Positions 1-39,133 of a DNA stretch of 39,133 bases are shown one piece after another (the stretch's first letter is position 1; every line of letters begins with the position of its first letter). Under the pieces are notes generated by a model. It was not told the origin of the DNA, searched no databases, and saw only the letters and a program-made list of their open reading frames with translations. The DNA lies in sequence record KT321314.1. One strand, given 5' to 3'. This stretch comes from Enterobacter phage phiEap-1. The position numbers and the translations under genes were made by a program.

Positions 1-195
1 TATCTCATAGTTTAACTGAACGTAACTCCCCCCGGTACCCCCATTAGTCCACCCTAAGAGAGGGTACCCCTGTGGATAACTTAAGGATACCTGTGGATAA
101 CTTTAGGTGTTCCTGTGGATAACCTAAGGTGTTAGGGCTATCTTGTGGATAACTTGAGGTGAACCTGTGGATAACTATTGGTGCCTATGTGTTCC
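1..195. repeat. Left direct terminal repeat (DTR); identical copy at 38939-39133
   Basis: Bases 1-195 are exactly repeated at the right end of the window (38939-39133). The window edges coincide with the repeat edges, as in a complete T7-type genome with terminal redundancy. The true repeat length could be longer if the window truncates it. Confidence 0.9.
71..175 (+). repeat. Array of five direct repeats with core TGTGGATAAC inside the terminal repeat (starts 71, 92, 114, 144, 166), each followed by a T7-SRL-like [ct]t[at]agg element
   Basis: Seen directly: cctgtggataacttaagg / cctgtggataactttagg / cctgtggataacctaagg / cttgtggataacttgagg / cctgtggataactattgg, at 21-30 bp spacing. The same array sits in the right DTR (39009-39113). 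It is analogous in position to the short-repeat arrays of the T7 terminal repetition. Confidence 0.85.
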
Positions 196-235
196 TATCT
201 GTTAGTCACTCTCAAGGTATCACCTGAGGTAACCA

Positions 236-258
236 CTCAAGGACTCACTATAGGACTC
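236..258 (+). promoter_or_regulatory. Weak or degenerate phage-RNAP promoter-like element (phiOL-like position)
   Basis: aaggactcactataggactcac contains the CTCACTATAGG core. It diverges from the genome consensus at the -17 to -9 specificity region. Confidence 0.2.
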
Positions 259-574
259 ACCATTAGTGACCATTTGTAGCGCTATCTATTAGTCTACCGA
301 CAGAAGACCATTAGTAGACCATTAGATGACACGTGGCTATTGTCATAGCGTTGTCTCGACCTGTGGTTACTATCGTTTAGCAGTGACTGACAGTAGGTCA
401 CAAAGGGTAAACACTTCTACTCTCGTTTAGCAGTCTCGGAGAGTGAGGAGACATAAGGAATAACAGGTGAGCCATTACTATAGGTATTATCCTTATGCCT
501 TGTCAATAGTCTTTATCATCATTGATTGATGGTCATCACATACTTAGAGGTCACTTAAAGATAATCATAAATTA

Positions 575-625
575 ATTTAAAATAAGTGTTGACAAGGGTA
601 TCGACCGTAGATATTATAGCTCTCG
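575..625 (+). promoter_or_regulatory. Strong sigma70-type early promoter (T7 A1 analogue) with an AT-rich UP-like element
   Basis: TTGACA at 589-594, a 17-bp spacer, and TATTAT at 612-617, preceded by attaatttaaaataagtg. It points into the early genes and gene 1. Confidence 0.65.
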
Positions 626-1183: not shown

Positions 1184-3865
1184 ATGTCTCTTATGAACTC
1201 CATCGAACGTAATGACTTCAGTGACATCGAGCTGGCTGCAATCCCTTACAACATCCTCAGCGAGCACTACGGGGCGTCCCTTGCGAAAGAGCAATTAGCG
1301 CTTGAGCATGAGGCCTACGAGCTGGGCGAACAGCGTTTCCTGAAGACCTTCGAACGCCAGATGAATAACGGTGAACTGGCTGACAACGCAGCGGCGAAAC
1401 CTTTGGTGCTCACTCTTCTACCGCGCTTAGTGTCTCGCATCAACCAATGGCGTCACGAGCAGGTCTACAAGTTGAACGATAAGGGCGAGGAAGTCTTGCG
1501 CGGTGGTAAGAAGACCATCATGTTCAATCTGACCGCAACGCTCACCGCTGAGGCAGTAGCACTGGCAACCATCAAGACTGTACTGGCGTCTCTGACGTCA
1601 ACCAATGCGGTCACCATTCAGGAAGCTGGCAGTGCCATTGGACGCGCTATCGAAGATGAGGCACGTTTTGGGCGCATCCGAGACCTCGAAGAGAAGCACT
1701 TTAAGAAAAACGTCAAGGAACAGTTAGAGAAGCGCGTGGGTACCGTGTACAAAAAGGCATTCATGCAAGTGATCGAGGCGGACATGCTGAGTAAGGGACT
1801 AATGGGCGGTCAGGCGTGGGCCTCATGGTCCAAAGAAGACTCCATTCACGTTGGCATACGCTGCATTGAGTTACTTATCGAGGCAACCGGAATGGTCGAG
1901 GTGGTCCGCCACGGTGCAGGCATCGCTAAGTTGGATTCTGAGAACCTCCAGTTAACCAAAGAGTACGCCGACCTGATTACCAAACGTGCCGGAGCGCTGG
2001 CGGGTATCAGCCCAATGTTCCAACCTTGTGTAGTCCCTCCGAAACCTTGGACGGAAATCACTGGTGGTGGCTATTGGGCTAACGGTCGCCGTCCGCTGGC
2101 ACTGGTGCGTACCCACGGTAAGAAGGCCCTCATGCGCTATCAGGACGTTTATATGCCTGAGGTGTACAAGGCCATCAACATTGCACAGTCAACGCCGTGG
2201 AAGATTAACCAGAAGGTACTGAAGGTAGCAAACGAGATTGTGAACTGGAAGAACTGCCCGGTCGAGGACGTCCCGGCAACCGAGCGTAAGGAACTCCCGG
2301 TCAAACCTGATGACATCGACACGAACCCTGAAGCACTGAAGGCGTGGAAGAAAGCCGCATCGACCATCTACCGCAACGATAAGGCACGAGTGTCTCGTCG
2401 AATCTCAATGGAGTTCATGCTGGCCCAAGCCAATAAGTTTGCCAACAAGAAAGCCATTTGGTTCCCGTACAACATGGACTGGCGTGGACGTGTATACGCT
2501 GTCCCGATGTTCAACCCTCAGGGCAATGACCTCACTAAAGGACTCCTGACGCTTGCTAAAGGTAAGCCGATTGGTCTCGACGGTCTGTACTGGCTGAAGA
2601 TTCACGGTGCCAACTGTGCAGGTGTCGATAAGGTCCCATTCCCTGAGCGCATCAAGTTCATCGAAGAGAACCACGACAACATTATGCAGTCTGCCGCAAA
2701 TCCTATTGAGTTCGATTGGTGGGCTAAGCAAGATTCACCGTTCTGCTTCTTAGCGTTCTGCTTTGAGTATGCAGGCGTTGAGCATCACGGTTTGAACTAC
2801 AACTGCTCTCTGCCGCTGGCGTTCGACGGGTCTTGCTCGGGCATTCAACACTTCTCTGCGATGCTTCGTGATGAGATTGGTGGACGCGCGGTCAACCTGT
2901 TGCCGTCTACCGAAGTGCAAGACATCTACCGCATCGTTGCCGATAAGGTCAACGAGATTCTTAAAGTGGACGCTGTGAACGGTACCGCTAACGAGGTGGA
3001 ACTGATTACCGATAAGACCACTGGCGAAATCAAAGAGCGCCTGAAGGTTGGCACCTCAGTGATGGCTCAAGAGTGGTTGGCTTTCGGGGTCACTCGTAAG
3101 GTCACTAAACGTTCCGTAATGACGCTGGCCTATGGGTCCAAGGAGTTTGGATTTCGTCAGCAAATCCTTGACGACACTGTGCAGCCTGCAATCGACAACG
3201 GTTACACCGGGTTCACTAACGGCAACCAATCGGCTGGCTACATGGCTAAGCTGATTTGGAATGCTGTGAGTGTAACCGTGGTAGCTGCTGTGGAAGCGAT
3301 GAACTGGCTTAAGAGCGCCGCTAAGCTGTTAGCCGCTGAAGTTAAGGATAAGAAGACCAAAGAGGTCCTACGCGCTCGCTGTGCGGTACATTGGGTAACT
3401 CCTGATGGGTTCCCGGTATGGCAAGAGTATCGTAAGTCTAAGCAAGTGCGTCTTGACTTGATTTTCCTTGGAAGTATCCGCCTGCAACCTACGGTAAACA
3501 CCAACAAGGACACCGGAATTGACGCTCACAAGCAAGAGTCCGGCATCGCTCCTAACTTTGTCCACTCACAGGATGGCAACCACTTAAGGGCGACCGTAGT
3601 ACACGCTCACGAGAAGTACGGTATCGAGTCCTTTGCACTCATCCACGACTCCTTTGGGACCATTCCGGCAGACGCCGCGAACCTCTTTAAGGCAGTCCGT
3701 GAGACAATGGTCGAGACCTACGAGTCTAACGATGTACTCGCAGACTTCTACGAGCAGTTCGCAGACCAGCTACACGAGAGCCAACTGGAAGACATGCCAG
3801 CGCTTCCTAAGGCTGGTAATTTGAACCTTCAGGACATCCTTAAGTCTGACTTCGCGTTTGCTTAA
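1184..3865 (+). CDS. 1: Single-subunit T7-type DNA-dependent RNA polymerase (893 aa)
   Basis: Collinear with T7 RNAP as recalled: NDFSDIELAAIP N-terminus, RAGALAGISPMFQPCVVPPKPW, DGSCSGIQHF, SVMTLAYGSKEFGF, FALIHDSFGT, and a C-terminal FAFA. RBS is AAGGA. Confidence 0.98.
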   Translation: MSLMNSIERNDFSDIELAAIPYNILSEHYGASLAKEQLALEHEAYELGEQRFLKTFERQMNNGELADNAAAKPLVLTLLPRLVSRINQWRHEQVYKLNDKGEEVLRGGKKTIMFNLTATLTAEAVALATIKTVLASLTSTNAVTIQEAGSAIGRAIEDEARFGRIRDLEEKHFKKNVKEQLEKRVGTVYKKAFMQVIEADMLSKGLMGGQAWASWSKEDSIHVGIRCIELLIEATGMVEVVRHGAGIAKLDSENLQLTKEYADLITKRAGALAGISPMFQPCVVPPKPWTEITGGGYWANGRRPLALVRTHGKKALMRYQDVYMPEVYKAINIAQSTPWKINQKVLKVANEIVNWKNCPVEDVPATERKELPVKPDDIDTNPEALKAWKKAASTIYRNDKARVSRRISMEFMLAQANKFANKKAIWFPYNMDWRGRVYAVPMFNPQGNDLTKGLLTLAKGKPIGLDGLYWLKIHGANCAGVDKVPFPERIKFIEENHDNIMQSAANPIEFDWWAKQDSPFCFLAFCFEYAGVEHHGLNYNCSLPLAFDGSCSGIQHFSAMLRDEIGGRAVNLLPSTEVQDIYRIVADKVNEILKVDAVNGTANEVELITDKTTGEIKERLKVGTSVMAQEWLAFGVTRKVTKRSVMTLAYGSKEFGFRQQILDDTVQPAIDNGYTGFTNGNQSAGYMAKLIWNAVSVTVVAAVEAMNWLKSAAKLLAAEVKDKKTKEVLRARCAVHWVTPDGFPVWQEYRKSKQVRLDLIFLGSIRLQPTVNTNKDTGIDAHKQESGIAPNFVHSQDGNHLRATVVHAHEKYGIESFALIHDSFGTIPADAANLFKAVRETMVETYESNDVLADFYEQFADQLHESQLEDMPALPKAGNLNLQDILKSDFAFA

Positions 3866-14315: not shown

Positions 14316-14521
14316 GTGAGTATCTCAAAGTACTGGCGGCCCTCAAGGGCTGCCCTAAGTCATTCCAATCGAACTACGTACGGAACAACGCTGCGTTAGT
14401 CGCTGAGGCTGCGAGCCGTGGTCACATTTCATGTCTGACCATGAGTGGTCGTAATGGTGGCGCTTGGGAGATTACCAGTGCCGGGGTGAAATTCCTTAAG
14501 ATTCACGGAGGTTGTTTATGA
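14312..14521 (+). CDS. 5.7: gp5.7 homologue (69 aa)
   Basis: MSEYLKVLAALKGCPKSFQSNYVRNNAALVAEAASRGHISCLTMSGRNGGAWEITSAG is near-identical to T7 gp5.7. GTG start with GTGA overlap with 5.5. Confidence 0.9.
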   Translation: MSEYLKVLAALKGCPKSFQSNYVRNNAALVAEAASRGHISCLTMSGRNGGAWEITSAGVKFLKIHGGCL

Positions 14522-14901
14522 GTAAGTTGTCCGATAACGTTAAAGGCTACGTAAAGGAGCTTGGCGAGCGTGAGACCGAGCACCGTAAGTATTCTTCGTT
14601 CTACCTGACGATATCCTTGAAGGTTACCGAGCGTGATGCTGAGTACGAAGAAGAACTCCGCCCGTACGTTGGTAAAGAGATTGTCGCTACCGGAATGTGG
14701 GACGACACTTGGGGTGATGAGATTTACGACTGGCGAGTATTCTCTGTGGAGACCTCTGAGGAAGATACAGAAGCCCGTTCAGAGTTCCGCGAGTTACTCT
14801 CTCACCTCAACGCCGAGGATAACAGCATGGCCCTAGACTTCCTTGAGAAGCACCTTAAGCCTAAACTAGTGGAGAATCGCGTGGAGGTTCACCATGAGTA
14901 A
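14518..14901 (+). CDS. Hypothetical strongly acidic 127-aa protein at the gp5.9 (RecBCD-inhibitor) locus
   Basis: ATG 14518 (GGAGG 8 nt upstream, ATGA overlap with the 5.7 stop). About 33 Asp/Glu versus about 17 Lys/Arg. It overlaps the gene 6 start by 8 nt. Confidence 0.75.
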   Translation: MSKLSDNVKGYVKELGERETEHRKYSSFYLTISLKVTERDAEYEEELRPYVGKEIVATGMWDDTWGDEIYDWRVFSVETSEEDTEARSEFRELLSHLNAEDNSMALDFLEKHLKPKLVENRVEVHHE

Positions 14902-19837: not shown

Positions 19838-19936
19838 CTGAAAGGAAGTTTCCCTTTAGTTACACATTGAGAACCAACTCGATTCAAGTAGTAACATACA
19901 CCTTTATCTTTAATTCATGAATAGGAGATTTACATT

Positions 19937-20977
19937 ATGGCAGATATGAAAGGCGGTCAGCAGATTGGTACTAACCAAGGTAAAGGCCAGAGCGCAGCAG
20001 ACAAACTGGCGTTGTTCCTTAAAGTGTTCGGTGGTGAAGTCCTGACCGCGTTCGCTCGTACCTCTGTGACCACTAACCGTCACATGATTCGTTCCATCGC
20101 TAACGGTAAGTCCGCACAGTTCCCGGTTCTGGGCCGCACCAAGGCAGCTTACTTGCAGCCGGGTCAGTCTCTGGATGACAAACGTAAAGATATCAAGCAC
20201 ACTGAGAAGACCATCAACATCGATGGCCTGCTGACTGCTGACGTTCTGATTTACGACATCGAAGACGCAATGAACCACTATGACGTTCGTGCAGAGTACA
20301 CTGCTCAGCTCGGTGAGTCTCTGGCAATGGCGTCTGATGGTGCTGTTCTGGCTGAGCTGGCTGGTCTGGTTAACCTGCCGACCACCACTGACGAGAACAT
20401 CGCGGGTCTGGGTAAACCGTCCCTGCTGACCCTGCCGACTATCACCGCAGCTACCTCTGTGACTGACGTTGAGAAGTACGGTCAGGAAATCATCGCGATG
20501 CTGACCCAGGCTCGTGCGAAGTTCACCAAGAACTACGTTCCGGCTTCTGACCGTACCTTCTACTGCACCCCGGAAGCGTACTCTGCGATTCTGGCTGCAC
20601 TGATGCCGAACGCTGCAAACTATGCGGCTCTGATTGACCCTGAGCGCGGTTCTATCCGTAACGTTATGGGCTTCGAAGTTGTAGAGGTTCCGCACCTGAC
20701 TGCTGGCGGCGCTGGCGATGACCGTGAAGACGAGACCACCAACCAGAAGCACTCCTTCCCGGCAACTGGCAACGTCAACGTTGATAACGTGGTTGGTGTA
20801 TTCCAGCACCGTTCCGCCGTTGGTACCGTTAAGCTGAAAGACCTTGCGCTGGAGCGTGCGCGTCGTCCTGAGTATCAGGCTGACCAGATTATCGCTAAGT
20901 ACGCTATGGGTCACGGTCAGCTCCGCCCGGAAGCGGCTGGTGCAGTAGTTTTCAAAGCGGCAGCATCGGGGGAGTAA
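19937..20977 (+). CDS. 10: Major capsid protein 10A (346 aa)
   Basis: Collinear with T7 gp10A (M..MKGGQQIGTNQGKG...DKLALFLKVFGGEVLTAFARTSVTT.RHM.RSI..GKSAQFPVLGRT). Confidence 0.98.
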   Translation: MADMKGGQQIGTNQGKGQSAADKLALFLKVFGGEVLTAFARTSVTTNRHMIRSIANGKSAQFPVLGRTKAAYLQPGQSLDDKRKDIKHTEKTINIDGLLTADVLIYDIEDAMNHYDVRAEYTAQLGESLAMASDGAVLAELAGLVNLPTTTDENIAGLGKPSLLTLPTITAATSVTDVEKYGQEIIAMLTQARAKFTKNYVPASDRTFYCTPEAYSAILAALMPNAANYAALIDPERGSIRNVMGFEVVEVPHLTAGGAGDDREDETTNQKHSFPATGNVNVDNVVGVFQHRSAVGTVKLKDLALERARRPEYQADQIIAKYAMGHGQLRPEAAGAVVFKAAASGE

Positions 20978-21087
20978 CACTCAGCCAGCCGACTGTTGCC
21001 ACCCTTAGTGTTGACTTAACGCCAGCACAAAAGGCTGCACAAACACGTGCTCGTAATCGTGCGCTCAAAGCTGCACAATCGGAGTAA
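20946..21087 (+). other. 10B: Predicted -1 ribosomal frameshift site (A GTT TTC) and 44-codon 10B extension (minor capsid protein, ~383 aa)
   Basis: A heptamer equivalent to T7's G GTT TTC lies 9 codons before the 10A stop. The -1 frame is open to TAA at 21085-21087 and encodes QSGSIGGVTLSQPTVATLSVDLTPAQKAAQTRARNRALKAAQSE, which resembles the T7 10B tail (LTPAQEAARTRAANKAR...). Confidence 0.6.
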
Positions 21088-24196: not shown

Positions 24197-24607
24197 ATGT
24201 ACATTAGGAAAACTATCAGTAATGACTTTGAGTTATTCACCCCGGCCTACCATGACCTACTTGAAGCAAAGGCTATGGGGATTGAACCATCGTTCCCTGA
24301 GGCATCCGAGTGTGTCACGTTAGACCACGGTGGTTTCCCTCTGGCGATTGGTGGTAATCAGGGTGACCAAGTGTGGTTCGTGACGAGCGACCAAGTGTGG
24401 CGACTTAATAGAGCACTGAAGGTTAGATTCCACAGGACTATCTGCGAGTATCGCGATAAGATGCTGGAGTCGTACCCTGTGTTATGGAACTTCGTCTATG
24501 TAGGTAACACCCCACACATTAGGTTCCTTAAGTCCATCGGTGCGGTATTCCATGAGGAGTACACACGGGATGGTCAATTCCAATTATTCACAATCACTAG
24601 GAGGTAA
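24197..24607 (+). CDS. 13: Internal virion protein A
   Basis: Position and size match T7 gp13. RBS is AGAGAGG. Confidence 0.85.
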   Translation: MYIRKTISNDFELFTPAYHDLLEAKAMGIEPSFPEASECVTLDHGGFPLAIGGNQGDQVWFVTSDQVWRLNRALKVRFHRTICEYRDKMLESYPVLWNFVYVGNTPHIRFLKSIGAVFHEEYTRDGQFQLFTITRR

Positions 24608-27425: not shown

Positions 27426-30400
27426 ATGGCTAAGTACGATAAGTCAATTCCAAGCGCCTATGACGCTGTGTTCCAACAAGCGGCTGATGAGGCCGGGGTC
27501 TCCTATGACCTGCTGCGTAAAGTAGCCTTCAATGAATCCTCATTCAACCCTAAGGCCGTCTCTAAGACTGGCCCTGTGGGAATCATGCAGTTCACCAAAG
27601 CTACCGCCAAGGCCATGGGGCTCAACGTTACAGGTGACGATAAGGATGACCGTTACAACCCGGCGCTGGCTATCCCTGCTGCCGCTAAGCATCTTGCGTC
27701 CCTCGTTAATAAATTCAACGGGGATGAGCTCAAAGCTGCCTTAGCGTACAACCAAGGAGAGGGACCTGCTGGTGCCCCTCAGCTTGAAGCGTATGACCGT
27801 GGGGACTTCTCCGCGATTAGCCCTGAAGGTGTAGGCTACATGCGTAAGCTGACGGACGTAGCTCGAAGTGACCGTAAAGGTCTCCTTGAGGAGTTCGGAG
27901 GCATAACCCCAAAGGCTAAAGGTATCCCCGCTGAGGACGCCTTTGCGGGTCTCCAAGCGCAGTCTAAGGTAGGCGATACCTTACCGCAGTCCACTGGTTT
28001 CTCCATCAAGGGAACCGAGCAGGAGGCACCTAACGAGCCCTTTGCGAAGACCTTCTGGGAGACCCACGGCACCACTCTGGATGAGTACAATCAGCGCTCT
28101 ACGTTCTTCGGGATTGGCGATGCCACTAGCGCAGAGTTACAGAACTCAGCATTAGGTGTTGCGTTCCGAGCGGCCCGAGTGGATGACTCCTATGATGTCT
28201 TCAAGGATACCATGACGCCAACCAAATGGAACAGCACCACATGGTCACCGGAAGACCTTGAGCGTATCCGCAACGAAGTGAAGAACCCGAGCTACATCAA
28301 CGTAGTAACTGGTGGTTCCCCTGAGAATCTGGATGCTCTCATTAAGATGGCTAACGATAACTACGAGGCTGACCGTAAGGCTGGTGACGCTGGCCTTGGT
28401 GCCAAGCTGACCGCTGGTATCATTGGCGCTGGTGTTGACCCGCTGAGCTACGTACCGATGGTTGGTGTAGCCGGGAAGGGACTCAAGGTCGCCAACAAGG
28501 CTCTTATCGTCGGTACCCAATCGGCAGGACTCAACGTAGTATCTGAGGGATTCCGTACGTCCATCGCTGGCGGTGAAGCACATTACGCTGACGCAGCCTT
28601 AGGTGGCCTTATGTTCGGTTCTGGTATGTCTGTCCTCGGTGATGCAATCGCTAAGGGTCTCGGTCGGACTGACTACAAGAACGACTTTGCGGGTCCTTCG
28701 ATGCGCTTAGAGGCCCGAGAGTCCAACTTCAACGCTGGCGGTTCTGACCCAACGCTGCACCCTGTGGATAACTTAGAGTTCACCGGGAGCCGTGGGGCCG
28801 TTCAGTTCGCTGAGCACCCAGCAGAGGAAGGAGCCGTGGTCTTACCGTCTGGTTTAATCCTGAGCGAGACCAACCCGGTCAACCCTAAGCTGCGTAATGA
28901 GTTCGAGCAGATTGACCCTGAGCGTGCATCCAAAGGTATCTCTCTTGGTGGGTTCACTGAGATTGGCCTGAAGACTCTCCGCTCGGAGGACGCTGAGGTT
29001 CGTGGCTTAGCGGCTGACCTTGTGCGTTCCCCTACTGGCATGGAGGGAGGTTCTAACGGTAAGTTCGGTGCCACCGCATCTGATGTCCACGAGCGACTGC
29101 ATAATACCGACCAGCGCATGTACAACCAGTTGTATGACGCTATGCGTAAAGCCATGGATGACCCAGAGTTCTCCACTGGAGGCCAGAAGATGTCTCGCGA
29201 AGGTATCCGTCAGGAAATCTATCGACGTGCAGCTCTGGCTATTGAACGTCCTGAGCTACAGAGTGGGCTGACCAAAGGTGAACGTAAGGTCATGGACCTG
29301 ATGAAGGAACACTTCGACACCAAGCGTGAGCTGATGGAGAACCCCGGTATGTTCGGTCGAATGGATGCCACAAGTATCTTCCCCGGAAGTCGTCATAAAG
29401 GGACCTACGTTCCTAACGTGTACGACCGGGCGACCAAGCAGATGTTCATCCAGCAGTACGGCGAGGAGGGCCTTCAGAATGCCATTGCGACTAGCTGGCT
29501 GACCTCTTATCGTTCCCGCCCAGAAGTCAAGGCGCGTGTCGATGAGTATCTATCAGAGCTTAACGGCGGCGCTGAGGTGACCCCCGAGATGGTCAAGAAG
29601 CACGCTATGGATAAGGCGTACGGTATCAGTCACACCGACCAGTTCAACGCTTCCAGTGTCATTGACGACAACATTACGGGTCTTGTAGGTATCGAGAACA
29701 ACTCATTCCTAGAAGCTCGTAACTTGTTCGACAGCGACATGCCTATCACCCTTCCTGACGGTCAGACGTTCTCTGTGAACGACCTGAGGGATTACGATAT
29801 GTTCCGCATCATGCCAGCGTATGACCGCCGTATTAACGGTGACATTGCAATCATGGCGGGTACCGGGAAGACCACCAAGGACCTAAAAGATGCTATTATG
29901 GCACTCGATAAGAAGTCCGAAGGTAACGGTAAGCTCAAGGGTGAAGTGGAGGCGCTTAAGGACACCGTTAAGATTCTCACCGGGCGAGCTCGACGCAATA
30001 ACGATACGGTATTCGATACAGCTCTACGCTCATTGAACGACCTCTCGTTCTTCGCTAAGAACGCCTATATGGGTCCGCAGAACCTTACGGAAATATCTGG
30101 GATGCTCGCCAAGGGCAACGTTGGGGCCATGCTGAATAACATCCCGATTCTTAACGACATGGTTAAGCAGGGAGGTATGAAGGGTTCCGAAATCAAGGAA
30201 CTACACGGTGTGCTGTTCGGTCGTGAGTTTGACCAGCTTGTGCGTCCGGGTCGTGCGGATATCATCCAGCGTCTCCGTGAGGCCTCCGATACGTCTGCCG
30301 GAGTGGCTAACGTTGTAGGGACCATTAAGTTCGGTACTCAGGAGCTGGCGGCTCGCTCTCCGTGGACCAAGGTTCTTAACGGTACCGCTAACTACATTCT

Positions 30401-33891: not shown

Positions 33892-35502
33892 ATGCAGTTA
33901 AGTAAACTGGCCCAAGCTATGGGCTCAACCATCGGCATCTTTGACAACGGCATGGATGTCCAAACGTACACTTATGGCATCGCAGTGACCCCGGAGCGAT
34001 TCGGGGCCAAGGGTGACGGTAAGGCTGATGATACGGTCGCTATGCAGAAGGCTTTCGACTACATCCGCGATAATCCGACAGGTCGCCTAATTGCAGCCAA
34101 TCGCTACGCTATTAGTGACACGCTGTACATCGATAACTTCTCTCAAGGTTGTCGCATCGAAATCGCCCAGCTCACCCTCCACCCTTCGTGGGTCAATACG
34201 GGTGACAAGTGGTTGAACGCTAAGGCGGCTATTGAGGTTGGCGCTAAGTCCAACGGTTCCATGGTGGGCCTGTATGTCGGCGTCCAGTATTTCCATGGGT
34301 CCGACAAGGCTACCCTGTATCGCCTGACTGGATTCGGTGCTGGTGGCTCTCGCTTCCACGGTGGTCGTGTACGTAACGTAATCGGTGTGTACCAGTGTGA
34401 TAGTGCATCTAGTGCTAACTCTGCGTCTAACTACATCTCTGGTGAATACTGGTATCAAGGTACCTTCGGTATTCGCGTACGCCGTAACGGTGCGTTCATC
34501 TCGGAAGGCCTGAACATTCAGGTGGGCTTCCTGACCAACTTTAAGTACGGTGGCATCCAGCTGTTCAATGGTGCGCAGTATTGGAAGATTACGAACACTG
34601 ACGTGGACTTCTGTGGTCAGTGGTTGGCAGAGCTTCAGGTAGACCGTTTGCCTGCCTCAGACATCCGAACGCAGAACATCCAGTACAATGATGCCGAGTA
34701 TGAGGTGCTGGACTACTACGAGCAACCTCGTGGTACCTATAAGTTACTAGTCATCGATAAGCAACTGACTACCGACAACAAGTCATCCTTCAGTACCAGC
34801 GTATCGACAGCTATTAGCGACGGCACCACTGCGTACACCCTTCAGGCCGTTGTGACTCCTAAGACAAACAATGCCTACTTCGACTTTATCCATGGGTTCC
34901 AAGGAGCCCCATTCAGTCGCGGTAAGGGTGACTTTGGGTACCTGTCACGTGCTGTGGGTGGTAACTGGAATGGTTCCACAATCTTCTTTAACAACTCATT
35001 CCAAGAGGTGACCAACTCCATCAACAACGTATGGATTCGAAACCAAGGGAACCGAGTGTCCATTGTGGACCGTTGGACCGGGACGTCTATCCTAGCGGTA
35101 AATACCCAAGGTGACATGGCGTGTACACTACCGGGTGGCTTCATCACCAAGGGTGTGTCCACTCTGGGTGGCGCAATGTTCACTGGTAGTCACCGTGTGT
35201 ACGGCAGCGAGGTTGCTACGACTCTCGTGAAGTCTACCGCTAAGACTATCCGAACGTTCTCCAAACAGAACGATGGCACTGAGACTCGTGTGGCTGAGAT
35301 TTATGATGTCCACGTGACCGGGCCAGACGGTCTGGAAGGTGTCGGAGGGTTCTGCCAAGTGATTGTCCACTCATCGAAGATTGAGGTGCGTAGCGCTTCA
35401 GGTGTCGCTGGGATGACCTTGAGTGTCTCTGGGATGTCCCTTCAGGCCACCCAAGGTACTCAGGATAGCATGCTCGTGCTGTTCATGATTGAGCGTAAAT
35501 AA
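33892..35502 (+). CDS. Second tailspike with a pectate-lyase-type beta-helix (putative polysaccharide depolymerase), lacking the gp17 N-terminal adapter
   Basis: N-terminal FGAKGDGKADDTVAMQKAFDY motif typical of pectate-lyase-3-type tailspikes. Strong TAAGGAGG RBS. No counterpart in T7. Confidence 0.9.
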   Translation: MQLSKLAQAMGSTIGIFDNGMDVQTYTYGIAVTPERFGAKGDGKADDTVAMQKAFDYIRDNPTGRLIAANRYAISDTLYIDNFSQGCRIEIAQLTLHPSWVNTGDKWLNAKAAIEVGAKSNGSMVGLYVGVQYFHGSDKATLYRLTGFGAGGSRFHGGRVRNVIGVYQCDSASSANSASNYISGEYWYQGTFGIRVRRNGAFISEGLNIQVGFLTNFKYGGIQLFNGAQYWKITNTDVDFCGQWLAELQVDRLPASDIRTQNIQYNDAEYEVLDYYEQPRGTYKLLVIDKQLTTDNKSSFSTSVSTAISDGTTAYTLQAVVTPKTNNAYFDFIHGFQGAPFSRGKGDFGYLSRAVGGNWNGSTIFFNNSFQEVTNSINNVWIRNQGNRVSIVDRWTGTSILAVNTQGDMACTLPGGFITKGVSTLGGAMFTGSHRVYGSEVATTLVKSTAKTIRTFSKQNDGTETRVAEIYDVHVTGPDGLEGVGGFCQVIVHSSKIEVRSASGVAGMTLSVSGMSLQATQGTQDSMLVLFMIERK

Positions 35503-35719: not shown

Positions 35720-35977
35720 ATGGACTTGAAGAAGTTCCTTGAGATGCTCGACACCAACATGGCTCAACAGATGCTTGTTGACTTAACGGACCCAGAGAAG
35801 TGCACCCCACAGCTCTACAACGCAATCGGCAAACTACTGGACCGCCATAAGTTCCAAATCTCCAAGATTCAACCTGACGCCAACATCCTTGGCGGACTGG
35901 CTGACTCTCTAGAGGAGTACAATAAGCGCGTCAGTCCTGATGGTCTATCGGATGACGACATCTACACCATTCAGTAA
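35720..35977 (+). CDS. 18: Terminase small subunit
   Basis: FLEMLDT.MAQ.ML.DL.D.E...PQLYNAI.KLLDRHKFQI.K.QPD..ILGGLA..LEEY and DDDIYT.Q match T7 gp18. Confidence 0.92.
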   Translation: MDLKKFLEMLDTNMAQQMLVDLTDPEKCTPQLYNAIGKLLDRHKFQISKIQPDANILGGLADSLEEYNKRVSPDGLSDDDIYTIQ

Positions 35978-36073: not shown

Positions 36074-36514
36074 ATGCTGGAATTTACAAAGAGAGTCGTC
36101 CCGTATCTTGTGGTAATCATGGTGTTCGCCTTCGGGTGGCACTTTGGGTCACAGTCTACGGACAACAAATGGAAGGAGGTAGTACACAATGAGTATGTAC
36201 AGAAAGTTGAAGCTACAGCGGCTACTAGCAAAGCGGTCGCAGCGATTAGCTCCAAGTACCAAGCGGACCTCGAAGGGCTTGAAGGCAGCACTGATAGGAT
36301 TATTGATGATTTGCGTAAGCGCAACCAGCGCCTGCTCGTCCAAGTCAAGCCTACCACCGGAACCCCAACAGGTGACGGTAGATGCCTCGTTGATGGTCCC
36401 GTCGAACTACACGAAGCAACTTCTCGACGTCTTATCGAAATAACGCAGAAGGCTGACCTGAAGGAGCGAGCATTGCAAGATACAATCAGAAAACTACAAG
36501 GAGGGACTAAATGA
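36074..36514 (+). CDS. 18.5: i-spanin (Rz-like), 146 aa
   Basis: N-terminal TM ([18 protein letters not shown]), then KWK.VVHNEYV..VEA and [17 protein letters not shown] match T7 gp18.5. Start is ATG 36074 (GGAGG upstream); the maximal ORF start 36011 lies inside the RNase III hairpin. Confidence 0.85.
36189..36443 (+). CDS. 18.7: o-spanin (Rz1-like lipoprotein) embedded in the +1 frame of the i-spanin gene
   Basis: [16 protein letters not shown] lipobox-like signal, then a Pro-rich periplasmic segment ([19 protein letters not shown]). Resembles T7 gp18.7 (GALIGLFLICVATISGC...LPEPP.VSVDSSLMV). Confidence 0.8.
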   Translation: MSMYRKLKLQRLLAKRSQRLAPSTKRTSKGLKAALIGLLMICVSATSACSSKSSLPPEPQQVTVDASLMVPSNYTKQLLDVLSK

Positions 36515-38271
36515 GCGACTCGCAGAATGCGCGTAACGCTCTCATTGTGGCACAACTGAAGGGCGACTTTGTTGCCTTTCTGTTTGTCCTATGGAAAGCG
36601 TTGAATCTACCGCCACCGACCAAGTGTCAGATAGATATGGCTAAATGTCTTGCTGACCCGAGTAACAAGAAGTTTATCCTTCAGGCTTTCCGTGGTATCG
36701 GGAAGTCGTTCATCACGTGTGCGTTTGTTGTGTGGACCTTATGGAAAGACCCTCAGCTAAAGATTCTGATTGTCTCTGCGTCCAAGGAACGTGCTGACGC
36801 TAACTCCATCTTCATCAAGAACATCATCGACCTGCTACCGTTCCTCTCTGAGCTTAAGCCTCGACAGGGGCAGCGTGACTCCGTGATTAGCTTCGATGTA
36901 GGCCCTGCTCGGCCTGACCACTCTCCTTCGGTGAAGTCCGTAGGTATCACTGGTCAGTTAACTGGTAGTCGTGCCGATATCATCATCGCGGATGACGTTG
37001 AGGTCCCTGGTAACTCCGCCACTCAGTCGGCCCGTGAGAAGCTCTGGACATTGGTCCAAGAGTTCGCCGCACTGTTGAAACCTCTGGACACCTCTCGTGT
37101 TATCTATCTGGGTACCCCTCAGACCGAGATGACCCTGTATCGAGAGCTTGAGGACAACCGTGGCTACACTACCATCATCTGGCCTGCTCAGTATCCGAGG
37201 ACTCGTGAAGAGGACATGTACTACGGTGAGCGTATGGCCCCGATGCTACGTGAGGAGTACAACGAAGGCTTTGAGATTCTAGCTGGTCAACCAACCGACC
37301 CGGTGCGGTTCGATAATGAGGACCTTCGAGAGCGTGAGCTTGAGTATGGCAAAGCTGGCTACACCCTACAGTTCATGCTTAACCCGAACCTCAGTGACGC
37401 CGAGAAGTACCCTCTACGGCTCCGTGACGCTATCGTGTGCGGTGTTGACAGTGAGAAGGCCCCAATGCATTACCAGTGGCTACCGAACCGTCAGAACCTC
37501 AATGAGGACCTCCCTAACGTTGGCCTTAAGGGTGATGATTATCATAGCTATCACACTGCCTCGAACAACCATGGGTTATACCAAGAGAAGATTCTTGTAG
37601 TGGACCCTAGTGGTCGCGGTAAGGATGAGACTGGTTGGTGTGTCTTATATACGCTAAATGGCTACATCTACCTGATGGACGCTGGCGGTACCCGAGGATA
37701 CGAAGAGAAGTCCCTTGAGTTCCTCGCTAAGAAAGCCAAGCAGTGGGGCGTACAGACCGTTGTGTTCGAGTCTAACTTCGGTGATGGCATGTTCGGTAAG
37801 GTATTCGCTCCGGTCCTCCTGAAGCACCACAAGGCGGCTCTCGAAGAGATTCGTGCACGTGGTCAGAAGGAGCTCCGCATCTGCGATACCCTTGAGCCTG
37901 TCATGGCGAGCCATCGTCTTGTCATCCGTGACGAGGTCATCAGGAACGACTATCAGACCGCTCGTGACGTTGACGGCAAGCATGCCCTGAAGTACAGCCT
38001 AATGTACCAGCTCACCCGCATGACTCGTGAGAGAGGCGCTGTGGCCCACGATGACCGTCTGGATGCCTTAGCGTTAGGCGTTGAGTTCCTGCGCAACCAC
38101 ATGGAGCTGAACAGCCAAGTAGCCGAACAAGAGGGTCTTCTGGAGTTCCTAGAGGAGCACATGGAGAAACCTTTGGTTGGCGGTGAGTCTCTCATGGAGA
38201 TGACCTACGGTGGCGTGACGATTGGCTGGGAAGATGACGACCTGAACATCGGAACGTTCATTGAATGGTAA
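36511..38271 (+). CDS. 19: Terminase large subunit
   Basis: 586 aa, the same length as T7 gp19. Walker A-like GIGKS; ATPase/nuclease organisation. Strong AAGGAGG RBS. Confidence 0.98.
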
Positions 38272-38349: not shown

Positions 38350-38372
38350 GCAATACCCTCACTATAGGACAG
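38350..38372 (+). promoter_or_regulatory. Phage-RNAP promoter near the right end (phiOR-like): gcaataccctcactataggacag
   Basis: Consensus through +2, with +3 G>A. It is preceded by two small hairpins (38274-38290 and 38328-38348) and followed by an AT-rich ttaaag-containing tract. Confidence 0.6.
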
Positions 38373-38663: not shown

Positions 38664-38938
38664 AATCCTGCTAGACCCGTAGAGGCTCAACGCAGAGTGA
38701 TTCCGTGGATATGATTATCATCATACACCACTCCATCACTGTAGAGTCAATACCCAAAGTATAACCTTAAGACTCACCTGTAGGCATCAGGAGGGTCTCT
38801 AAGGGTCTCTCCTGAGGTCTACCTTTAGTAGGCCGTGTACCATTAGTGATACCATTAGAACCTCTTAGAGGGCCTTATAGAGGCCTTTGTGACTACCTGT
38901 AGTAACCTTTAAGAATACACCACAAAAGTCTGAGAGTA

Positions 38939-39133
38939 TATCTCATAGTTTAACTGAACGTAACTCCCCCCGGTACCCCCATTAGTCCACCCTAAGAGAG
39001 GGTACCCCTGTGGATAACTTAAGGATACCTGTGGATAACTTTAGGTGTTCCTGTGGATAACCTAAGGTGTTAGGGCTATCTTGTGGATAACTTGAGGTGA
39101 ACCTGTGGATAACTATTGGTGCCTATGTGTTCC
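38939..39133. repeat. Right direct terminal repeat (identical to 1-195)
   Basis: Exact 195-bp identity with the left end. Confidence 0.9.

Follow-up and report, generated by a model that had tools for sequence, protein, structure and literature searches.

A phased array of oriC-type DnaA boxes in the terminal repeat of a T7-like phage and a possible role for host DnaA at its genome ends

Enterobacter phage phiEap-1 (sequence record KT321314.1) has a complete, T7-like genome of 39,133 bp, which was analyzed over its full length and is referred to below as the window. The genome is bounded by a direct terminal repeat (DTR) of 195 bp, of which the left copy (1-195) and the right copy (38939-39133) are 100% identical. 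We describe an array of five copies of the 9-mer TGTGGATAA inside this repeat, compare it with the DnaA boxes in the replication origin (oriC) of E. coli and with the terminal repeats of other phages, and consider what host DnaA might do at the ends of a linear phage genome.

Five boxes in the terminal repeat

The features of the repeat and its surroundings are as follows.

1..195, + strand: left DTR, an exact repeat of 38939-39133
3..70, + strand: box-free terminal segment, lineage-typical, resembling the left ends of T3 and NJ2
70..81, + strand: unit 1, cTGTGGATAACt, the 12-mer of oriC R4; 9-mer box at 71-79
91..102, + strand: unit 2, cTGTGGATAACt; box at 92-100
113..124, + strand: unit 3, cTGTGGATAACc; box at 114-122
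143..154, + strand: unit 4, tTGTGGATAACt; box at 144-152, with a 5' flank as in oriC R2
165..176, + strand: unit 5, cTGTGGATAACt; box at 166-174, the last box, 21 bp ahead of the junction element
79..159, + strand: T7-type short repeats alternating with the boxes (ACTTAAGG at 79, ACTTTAGG at 100, ACCTAAGG at 122, ACTTGAGG at 152)
196..203, + strand: concatemer-junction element TATCTGTT at the right boundary of the repeat; K11 has an annotated "concatemeric junction" at the equivalent place
204..345, + strand: left flanking short-repeat array (CTCAAGG, CCTGAGG, CCATTAG and others), with no DnaA box
38764..38913, + strand: right flanking short-repeat array (ACCTTAAG, ACCTGTAG, ACCTTTAG and others), with no DnaA box
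38939..39133, + strand: right DTR, identical to 1-195; boxes at 39009, 39030, 39052, 39082 and 39104
28763..28771, + strand: lone copy of TGTGGATAA outside the DTRs, inside a gp16-like open reading frame (ORF)

The five copies in the left DTR start at positions 71, 92, 114, 144 and 166 of the plus strand. They share a single orientation and are spaced by 21/22/30/22 bp, which corresponds to about two (once about three) helical turns; these spacings agree with those given in an earlier note on this DNA. Identity between the five copies is 100% over the 9-mer, as compared to 64% over the remaining unit positions (spacers). In total, TGTGGATAA was found 11 times in the genome, as compared to 0.28 copies expected, and none of 100 shuffled sequences reached this number. 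Ten of the 11 copies are located inside the DTRs, and the single copy that makes up the background over the rest of the genome, at 28763, is probably a chance occurrence outside the feature. The relaxed consensus TT[AT]TNCACA added one site only, at 24584, and the nine sites with one mismatch to the box are dispersed singly in the genome.

The DTR has the hallmarks of the T7 group: its length falls into the ~150-250 bp class, its left terminus is of the TCTCA[TC]AG type and TATCTGTT follows its right boundary. The ends of T3, T7 and K11, together with the annotated junction of K11, agree with the left terminus of the window and with the placement of TATCTGTT. The genomes of T3 and phiYeO3-12 begin with TCTCATAGTT, and by analogy the true left end of the genome is probably base 3 (TCTCATAGTT...). 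The left cut site is presumably carried by the box-free segment 3-70. Adjacent genome units in T7 concatemers share one terminal repeat, so each junction carries five boxes and not the ten that the earlier note had counted.

The boxes are interleaved with short repeats of a family that is also present in the terminal repeats of T7, T3 and K11, and each interior short repeat overlaps the AAC flank of the box before it. Seven forward matches to the short-repeat pattern (CCTNNRG type) were found in the DTR, namely four plain repeats and three box starts of the form CCTGTGG. The unit of 21-22 bp thus consists of two short repeats of ~11 bp, every second one being a DnaA box, and this makeup suggests a possible route by which the boxes could have evolved from ordinary short repeats. 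The consensus that the earlier note had given for the 3' half of the unit fits copies 1-3, while copies 4 and 5 read CTTGAGG and CTATTGG. The resemblance of this half to the short repeats of T7 holds, but as a direct match (ACCTAAGG and ACTTGAGG in the window, CCCTAAGG and ACCTTGAGG in T7) rather than through the reverse complement.

Comparison to oriC and to other DnaA-binding loci

We compared the array to oriC as taken from an E. coli chromosome sequence, in which R1 is cccTGTGGATAACaagg, R4 is acTGTGGATAACtctg and R2 is tTGTGTATAACc. Written as TTATCCACA, the 9-mer occurs in five exact copies per repeat and has the GTTATCCACAG type of flank that is seen at R1 and R4. Four of the five phage copies carry the 11-mer CTGTGGATAAC, which is common to R1 and R4, and the 3' C is present in all five. 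The identity of the core to an R1-type box, which had been claimed before, was thus borne out against the real oriC, with the flanks of R1 and R4 matching as well. A total of 64 units from nine array-bearing phages gave the consensus C-TGTGGATAA-C-T, identical to the 12-mer of R4. Judged by its sequence, the core of the array is a genuine top-affinity DnaA box of the R1/R4 type.

The likeness to R1 and R4 thus comprises an identical 9-mer, the flanks CTGTGGATAAC and the R4 12-mer CTGTGGATAACT, a single orientation and spacing by whole helical turns. The array differs from oriC in that it has no DNA unwinding element (DUE), no GATC cluster and no sites for IHF or Fis, and in that its strong boxes are 21-22 bp apart, whereas oriC has strong anchors flanking 11-bp arrays of weak sites. 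It is moreover located at the end of a linear phage genome with phage-encoded replication machinery. No sequence resembling the 13-mers of an AT-rich unwinding element was found, with windows of at least 80% A+T occurring only at 551-590; neither GATC nor the IHF consensus is present in 1-700, nor is a Fis-like pattern in 1-300. Next to the first box (31-70) the A+T content is only 38%, as compared to 63% for bases 1-30. An oriC-like origin was rejected on the absence of DUE 13-mers and of GATC, IHF and Fis features. GATC is rare in the genome as a whole (3 sites as compared to ~153 expected, with zero in 1-700), and avoidance of this Dam site is known for T7 itself.

The chromosomal loci datA and DARS are likewise clusters of DnaA boxes outside the origin that bind (titrate or recycle) DnaA. 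However, datA needs an IHF site and DARS has a core of oppositely oriented boxes, neither of which is present in the window. A locus of this kind was rejected because there is no IHF consensus, all five boxes have the same orientation and a head-to-head core is absent.

Many copies of the two-box unit (TGTGGATAAC-N4-GG-N4/5-CTGTGGATAAC) are present in bacterial genomes, across many phyla. Out of 120 bacterial matches, at least 48 have hallmarks of dnaA or dnaN no more than 8 kb away, and an ORF neighboring one such unit was confirmed as DnaN by Pfam. Because many of the bacterial matches adjoin these hallmarks, the two-box arrangement is present at real chromosomal origins. Scans of metagenomes and bacterial genomes for the unit recovered mostly bacterial origin-like regions and unrelated phages, and neither a source locus nor a relative was found among them. 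Four consecutive matches with a period of ~33 bp were observed at 3416-3607 of the small symbiont plasmid pSOE2 (3828 bp) of Candidatus Pantoea edessiphila, which may represent a DnaA-dependent plasmid origin.

Distribution of the array among phages

The 12-mer array was identified in several, but not all, Berlinvirus phages (A7, P483, nasanit and NJ2), in partial form in two Przondovirus records (175002 and cmc355D, as identified by BLAST, with the sequence read for 175002 only) and in at least 21 Klebsiella and Proteus phages of ~45 kb from the subfamily Molineuxvirinae (Kp7, ZK1, PmP19, VLCpiA2a, H01 and others), in which the other repeat sequences are SP6-like. The array is thus found in two subfamilies, Studiervirinae and Molineuxvirinae. 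An exact DTR of 177 bp in A7 contains all 8 exact boxes of the genome, an exact DTR of 238 bp in Kp7 contains all five end boxes, and in P483, nasanit and NJ2 every exact box is located at the end junction. The array ends 14-21 bp before TATCTGT in every array-positive lineage, and its orientation is uniform except for two inverted boxes in 175002. Box spacings across nine phages cluster at 11/12 and 21/22 bp, apart from a few of 26-34 bp.

The terminal regions of T7, T3, phiYeO3-12, K11, SP6 and K1-5 contain no match to TTATNCACA, and P694 has no box in its whole genome. Among 80 Studiervirinae contigs retrieved by terL, the gene for the large terminase subunit, 78 have no exact box downstream of this gene, the exceptions being L205 and L207. 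The background in related adjacent coding DNA amounts to 4 exact boxes per 437 kb. Przondovirus contigs (L136-L179 and L214) mostly have exactly one relaxed box (TTATNCACA) within 1.5 kb downstream of terL.

Arrays were also observed in more distant sequences. Ten environmental podovirus-like contigs have 3-8 exact boxes each, located 2-6 kb upstream of the primase-helicase gene and often at the contig end; their primase-helicase or DNA polymerase is 30-36% identical to that of the window. Among 56 whole-contig matches in IMG/VR, 21 arrays are located less than 700 bp from a contig end, as compared to 11.1 expected (P ~0.001). In a T7-like lineage represented by the contigs L109 and L019, triplets of gTTATCCACAgg with a spacing of 11-12 bp are located between terL and the early genes (6874-7244 in L109 and 9345-9649 in L019). 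Two of the three triplets in L109 (at 7136 and 7221) closely follow a sigma-70-like promoter sequence that is present in duplicate (ttgacatcc...taaact). By their sequence, these triplets look like DnaA-controlled early promoters or another use of the box, and the use of boxes does not appear to be uniform across phages.

Conservation of the boxes

No close relatives of the window that would allow a direct comparison of boxes and spacers were found, with terL identity in IMG/VR peaking at 84%. When five repeats from the Kp7 clade were aligned, variation was confined to 1 of 54 box columns as compared to 39 of 157 non-box columns (Fisher P = 4e-5), and the number of units changes in whole units. 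In the Berlinvirus trio, single units switch between exact and near-exact forms, with four or five exact boxes retained. An unfiltered census yielded 62 units, of which 39 are exactly TTATCCACA. Taken together, the comparative data point to the box itself as a selected feature.

Terminases and the packaging question

The Shigella phage A7, which has the array, and the E. coli phage P694, which lacks it, encode terminase subunits that are 98.9% (terS) and 99.5% (terL) identical. Their DNA is near-identical from terL to the left repeat boundary, inside which the array is replaced by short repeats of the CCTTATG type. The segment matching 3-70 of the window is conserved between the two phages while the interior is swapped, and both have the junction sequence ...ctatctgt at their far end, which the alignment did not set in register. 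Because the terminases and flanks are near-identical and the interior differs, the interior of the DTR constitutes an exchangeable accessory cassette, and the boxes are best read as something other than a terminase recognition signal.

The array had previously been taken for the probable concatemer-processing or packaging repeat of this phage, which would be a signal read by a phage protein such as the terminase. Its location is in agreement with such a signal, since it lies within the terminal repeat, with a cut site on either side and TATCTGTT next to it. However, 99%-identical terminases serve repeats with and without the array, and the covariation of motif and terminase that is expected of pac-type repeats was not observed in A7 and P694. 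The terS and terL products of the window are closest (76% and 84%) to those of array-negative phages, and the identical 12-mer is accompanied by very different terminases in Studiervirinae and Molineuxvirinae. T7, T3, K11, SP6 and K1-5 package their DNA without the array, and their box-free terminal repeats, along with that of phiYeO3-12 and the 78 Studiervirinae contigs mentioned above, show that related phages keep the function of the repeat without box cores, and hence that the DnaA core is dispensable for it. A packaging signal was rejected on the comparison of A7 and P694, which largely refutes it, and on the absence of the array from classical T7-group phages; we give it hardly any credence. 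The box-free relatives refute the necessity of the boxes for packaging, not the binding of DnaA, and the recruitment or titration of host DnaA that the earlier note had suggested is still plausible.

Other features of the genome

Four further features of the genome are as follows.

589..617, + strand: host sigma-70-type early promoter (TTGACA-17-TATTAT), like A1 of T7; K11 has annotated host promoters at 581-617
35720..35977, + strand: terminase small subunit (gp18; phrog_1351, E = 2.4e-39)
36511..38271, + strand: terminase large subunit (gp19), 75-84% identical to terL of 80 Studiervirinae loci
38350..38372, + strand: phiOR-type promoter for the phage RNA polymerase (GCAATACCCTCACTATAGGACAG), with a consensus common to eight CACTATAGG sites

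The early promoter at 589-617 marks the leading, first-entering end of the genome. The phiOR-type promoter reads rightward and would, in a concatemer, transcribe into the repeat and the array. No promoter was predicted inside the repeat, and a search of the whole window against Rfam gave no RNA family match. A strong match to a sigma-70-like promoter on the minus strand (506-477, TTGACA-18-TATAGT, 11/12) is aimed leftward at the junction element, the array and the genome end, and recalls the A0 promoter of T7 and T3, which is likewise directed leftward.

The nearest relatives in GenBank are K11/KP32-like Klebsiella phages (Przondovirus), with ~80% identity over about half of the query, and the terL product is 79% identical to the annotated "DNA packaging protein" of A7. 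The early region (600-1184) looks very short, with the RNA polymerase ORF starting at 1184 as compared to 3050 in K11, in which this gene is preceded by the 0.3, 0.4, 0.6 and 0.7-kinase genes. In the window, this region seems too small to hold early genes of the gp0.3 or gp0.7 type. The second tail-spike ORF (33892-35502, + strand) has its best matches in the spikes of a myovirus of Serratia rubidaea and of a Klebsiella aerogenes phage, with an identity of only ~49%. This similarity points to an enterobacterium close to Serratia or Klebsiella aerogenes as the host, which may thus not be Klebsiella pneumoniae, in contrast to most genomic relatives. An ORF of 356 amino acids (19910-20980, - strand) covers the entire major-capsid gene (19937-20977, + strand) in antisense and is probably an artefact of codon composition.

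In T7, T3 and P694, the slot that separates gp5.7 from the exonuclease of gene 6 encodes gp5.9, an inhibitor of RecBCD. No homolog of gp5.9 was found in the window, in which this slot is occupied by an acidic ORF of 127 amino acids (14518-14901, + strand; phrog_4382). The inhibitor is absent from the array-positive phages A7, P483 and nasanit and present in the array-negative P694, but the pattern is broken by K11, which has neither, and by 175002, which has both; NJ2 and the window have unrelated ORFs in the slot. A link between the array and the loss of gp5.9 was rejected, since exceptions blur the pattern and the three phages that fit it are closely related, and it is kept only as a lead; the association probably reflects a single event.

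Discussion

The terminal repeat of the window shares with those of T7, T3 and K11 an exact DTR of ~160-240 bp, a left terminus of the TCTCATAG type, TATCTGTT at the right boundary, CCTNNRG repeats phased at ~11 bp in the interior and in both flanks, and a phiOR promoter directed toward the end. It differs from these repeats, which contain short repeats of the CCTAAAG/CCTTGGG type, in that every other repeat of its interior forms a perfect DnaA R-box. In the cosB region of lambda, a site for the host protein IHF, which serves as an architectural factor in packaging there, is similarly located within the region where genome ends are made. The protein is a different one, however, and the type of terminase and the array are uncoupled in the phages compared here, so that a host factor aiding the terminase is not seen.

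The closest parallel outside the T7 group comes from T5-like phages, whose long terminal repeat has conserved DnaA boxes, mostly TTATCCACA, in its non-coding injection-stop (iss) region (bioRxiv 10.1101/866236). These boxes were reported by Heusterspreute (1987), as cited in Davison (2020; bioRxiv 10.1101/866236). Membrane-bound DnaA has been hypothesized to hold the DNA at this place, as a proposal only (bioRxiv 10.1101/866236; PMC10644984), which was still described as untested in the literature of 2023 and 2026. As in T5, the boxes of the window are located in a non-coding part of the terminal repeat at the first-entering end. In T5, however, eight boxes form pairs with a distance of 3 bp within two large inverted repeats, IRC and IRD, several kb from the end of a repeat of ~10 kb, whereas the window has five direct, phased boxes with a spacing of 21-30 bp and no inverted partners, 70-175 bp from the end of a repeat of 195 bp. 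T5 belongs to a phage family unrelated to that of the window and injects its DNA in two steps.

Searches of the openly available full-text literature revealed no account of DnaA boxes in the terminal repeats of T7-like phages, nor any of phage boxes that titrate DnaA; the work on T5 was the one related case to be recovered. The combination of a phased R4-type array and a swappable cassette in the terminal repeats of the T7 supergroup appears to be new, while the kinds of components are already known. DnaA is known as an initiator and as a transcription factor, and apart from the suggestion made for T5 in 1987 and 2020 we know of no phage that uses it at the genome ends.

We tentatively favor, with a probability of about 0.45, a model in which the array serves to assemble an end-associated nucleoprotein complex of host DnaA that acts as a cap, an anchor or a roadblock. 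In this model, DnaA would bind the five R-type boxes through its DNA-binding domain, and because the spacings are about whole helical turns, the bound molecules would be roughly aligned on one face of the DNA and could build a compact complex, placed between the left cut site and TATCTGTT at the junction. This complex would form on the DNA that enters first and at each free end or junction of a concatemer, where it might protect or tether the ends, or halt approaching polymerases at the end or junction. A function of this kind is favored because the repeat enters the cell first and is present at every free end and junction. The model is based on the identity of the boxes and their flanks to those of oriC, their terminal-only location, their phasing, their recurrence in other phages, their independence of the terminase and their conservation in one clade. 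We infer from the sequence comparisons that DnaA binds the array in vivo, and consider it likely that this binding is a selected property of the array.

Several observations weigh against a DnaA complex at the ends. An end or entry function alone leaves unexplained why the boxes are strictly confined to the repeat rather than spread into the non-coding leader of ~600 bp, and since most relatives live without boxes, any benefit must be conditional or small. The 5' part of the box, (A)CCTGTGG, belongs to the short-repeat family of the phage itself, with kin outside the array (two copies of ACCTGTAG in the right flank, and ACCTGTGGTTAC at 359), so that part of the motif comes "free". In the Berlinvirus trio, the boxes vary like other repeat positions (8 of 72 columns as compared to 12 of 102). 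In the unit census, the position at which DnaA tolerates any base is C in 60 of the 62 units, and the commonest variant, TTACCCACA, falls outside the classical TTATNCACA consensus. The variation is thus not simply a reflection of the known tolerance of DnaA, although selection for maximum affinity would be expected to give such a pattern too. The T7-like lineage of L019 and L109 (IMG/VR, terL ~52% identical) has boxes in opposite orientation near promoter-like sites, and the enrichment of arrays at contig ends may be an assembly artefact, caused by repeats that break assemblies.

The kinship of (A)CCTGTGG to the short repeats is also what supports the view that the units are merely T7-type short repeats of this lineage, with the match to the DnaA box as a by-product, with or without harmless binding. 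This view is in agreement with the interchangeability of cassettes with and without boxes and with the lack of excess constraint on the boxes of the Berlinvirus trio. It does not account well for the exact identity over 9 to 12 positions to oriC R4 in two subfamilies with otherwise different short repeats, for the use of the single highest-affinity sequence in 39 of the 62 units, for the invariance of the boxes while the alternating repeats and spacers drift, or for the significantly higher conservation of the boxes in the Kp7 clade. Nor do the short-repeat arrays flanking the repeat ever adopt the form of the box, and we consider an incidental look-alike to be improbable. About as improbable, in our view, is that the boxes function as a sink, in which five boxes per end on hundreds of replicating genomes would soak up the DnaA of the cell and thereby block new rounds of host replication or alter DnaA-regulated transcription, irrespective of their position. 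High-affinity R-type sites bind DnaA whatever its nucleotide state, the location in a repeat doubles the dose per genome, and many viral contigs carry arrays at non-terminal places too. However, titration requires neither a repeat-only location nor a stop 14-21 bp before the junction element, nor a single orientation and phasing. The gain is also doubtful for T7-like phages, which take only minutes to shut off and break down the host chromosome, and an IHF site of the kind required by datA is absent.

Less probable still is a DnaA-dependent opening of the end, in which an oligomer would unwind the terminal ~70 bp, much as the left half of oriC opens its DUE upstream of R1, and thereby start replication near the end or help the ends anneal into concatemers. 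The order of end, 70 bp and TGTGGATAA boxes has the polarity of DUE-R1-R5M in oriC, the outermost 30 bases are A+T-rich, and T7 has secondary origins near its left end. Against this stand the absence of 13-mer-type, GATC, IHF and Fis elements and the G+C-rich sequence that adjoins the first box. Moreover, replication in the T7 group relies on a phage helicase-primase and on origins primed by the phage RNA polymerase, independently of dnaA, and close relatives replicate without the array.

A broader version of the DnaA end complex would be that a small, mobile cassette of phased R4-type boxes spread, or arose repeatedly, in the terminal repeats of podoviruses (Berlinvirus, the Przondovirus-like phage of the window and a clade of Molineuxvirinae), making DnaA a structural component of their ends. 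Judging from the sequences we find this conceivable but doubtful. The differently organized boxes in the terminal repeat of T5 would be the analogous case, and the roles open to a DnaA oligomer could include protection from exonucleases, tethering to the membrane, pausing of DNA entry and halting of polymerases at the junction. If true, this would amount to a general and so far unrecognized use of DnaA by phages outside the initiation of replication.

The distribution of the array suggests a coating of the genome ends by a host protein in some phages, and natural, near-isogenic pairs of E. coli phages (P483 or A7 as compared to P694) exist for studying DnaA on phage ends. Should the binding of DnaA turn out to be irrelevant, the array would still be a useful warning where host-factor motifs are read into the repeat arrays of phages. 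If it has a function, it would show a possible use of the variable interior of T7-type terminal repeats, bear on how linear phage DNA is protected and organized as it enters the cell and replicates, and offer a simpler system for the question raised by the injection stop of T5, namely whether DnaA acts on phage ends.

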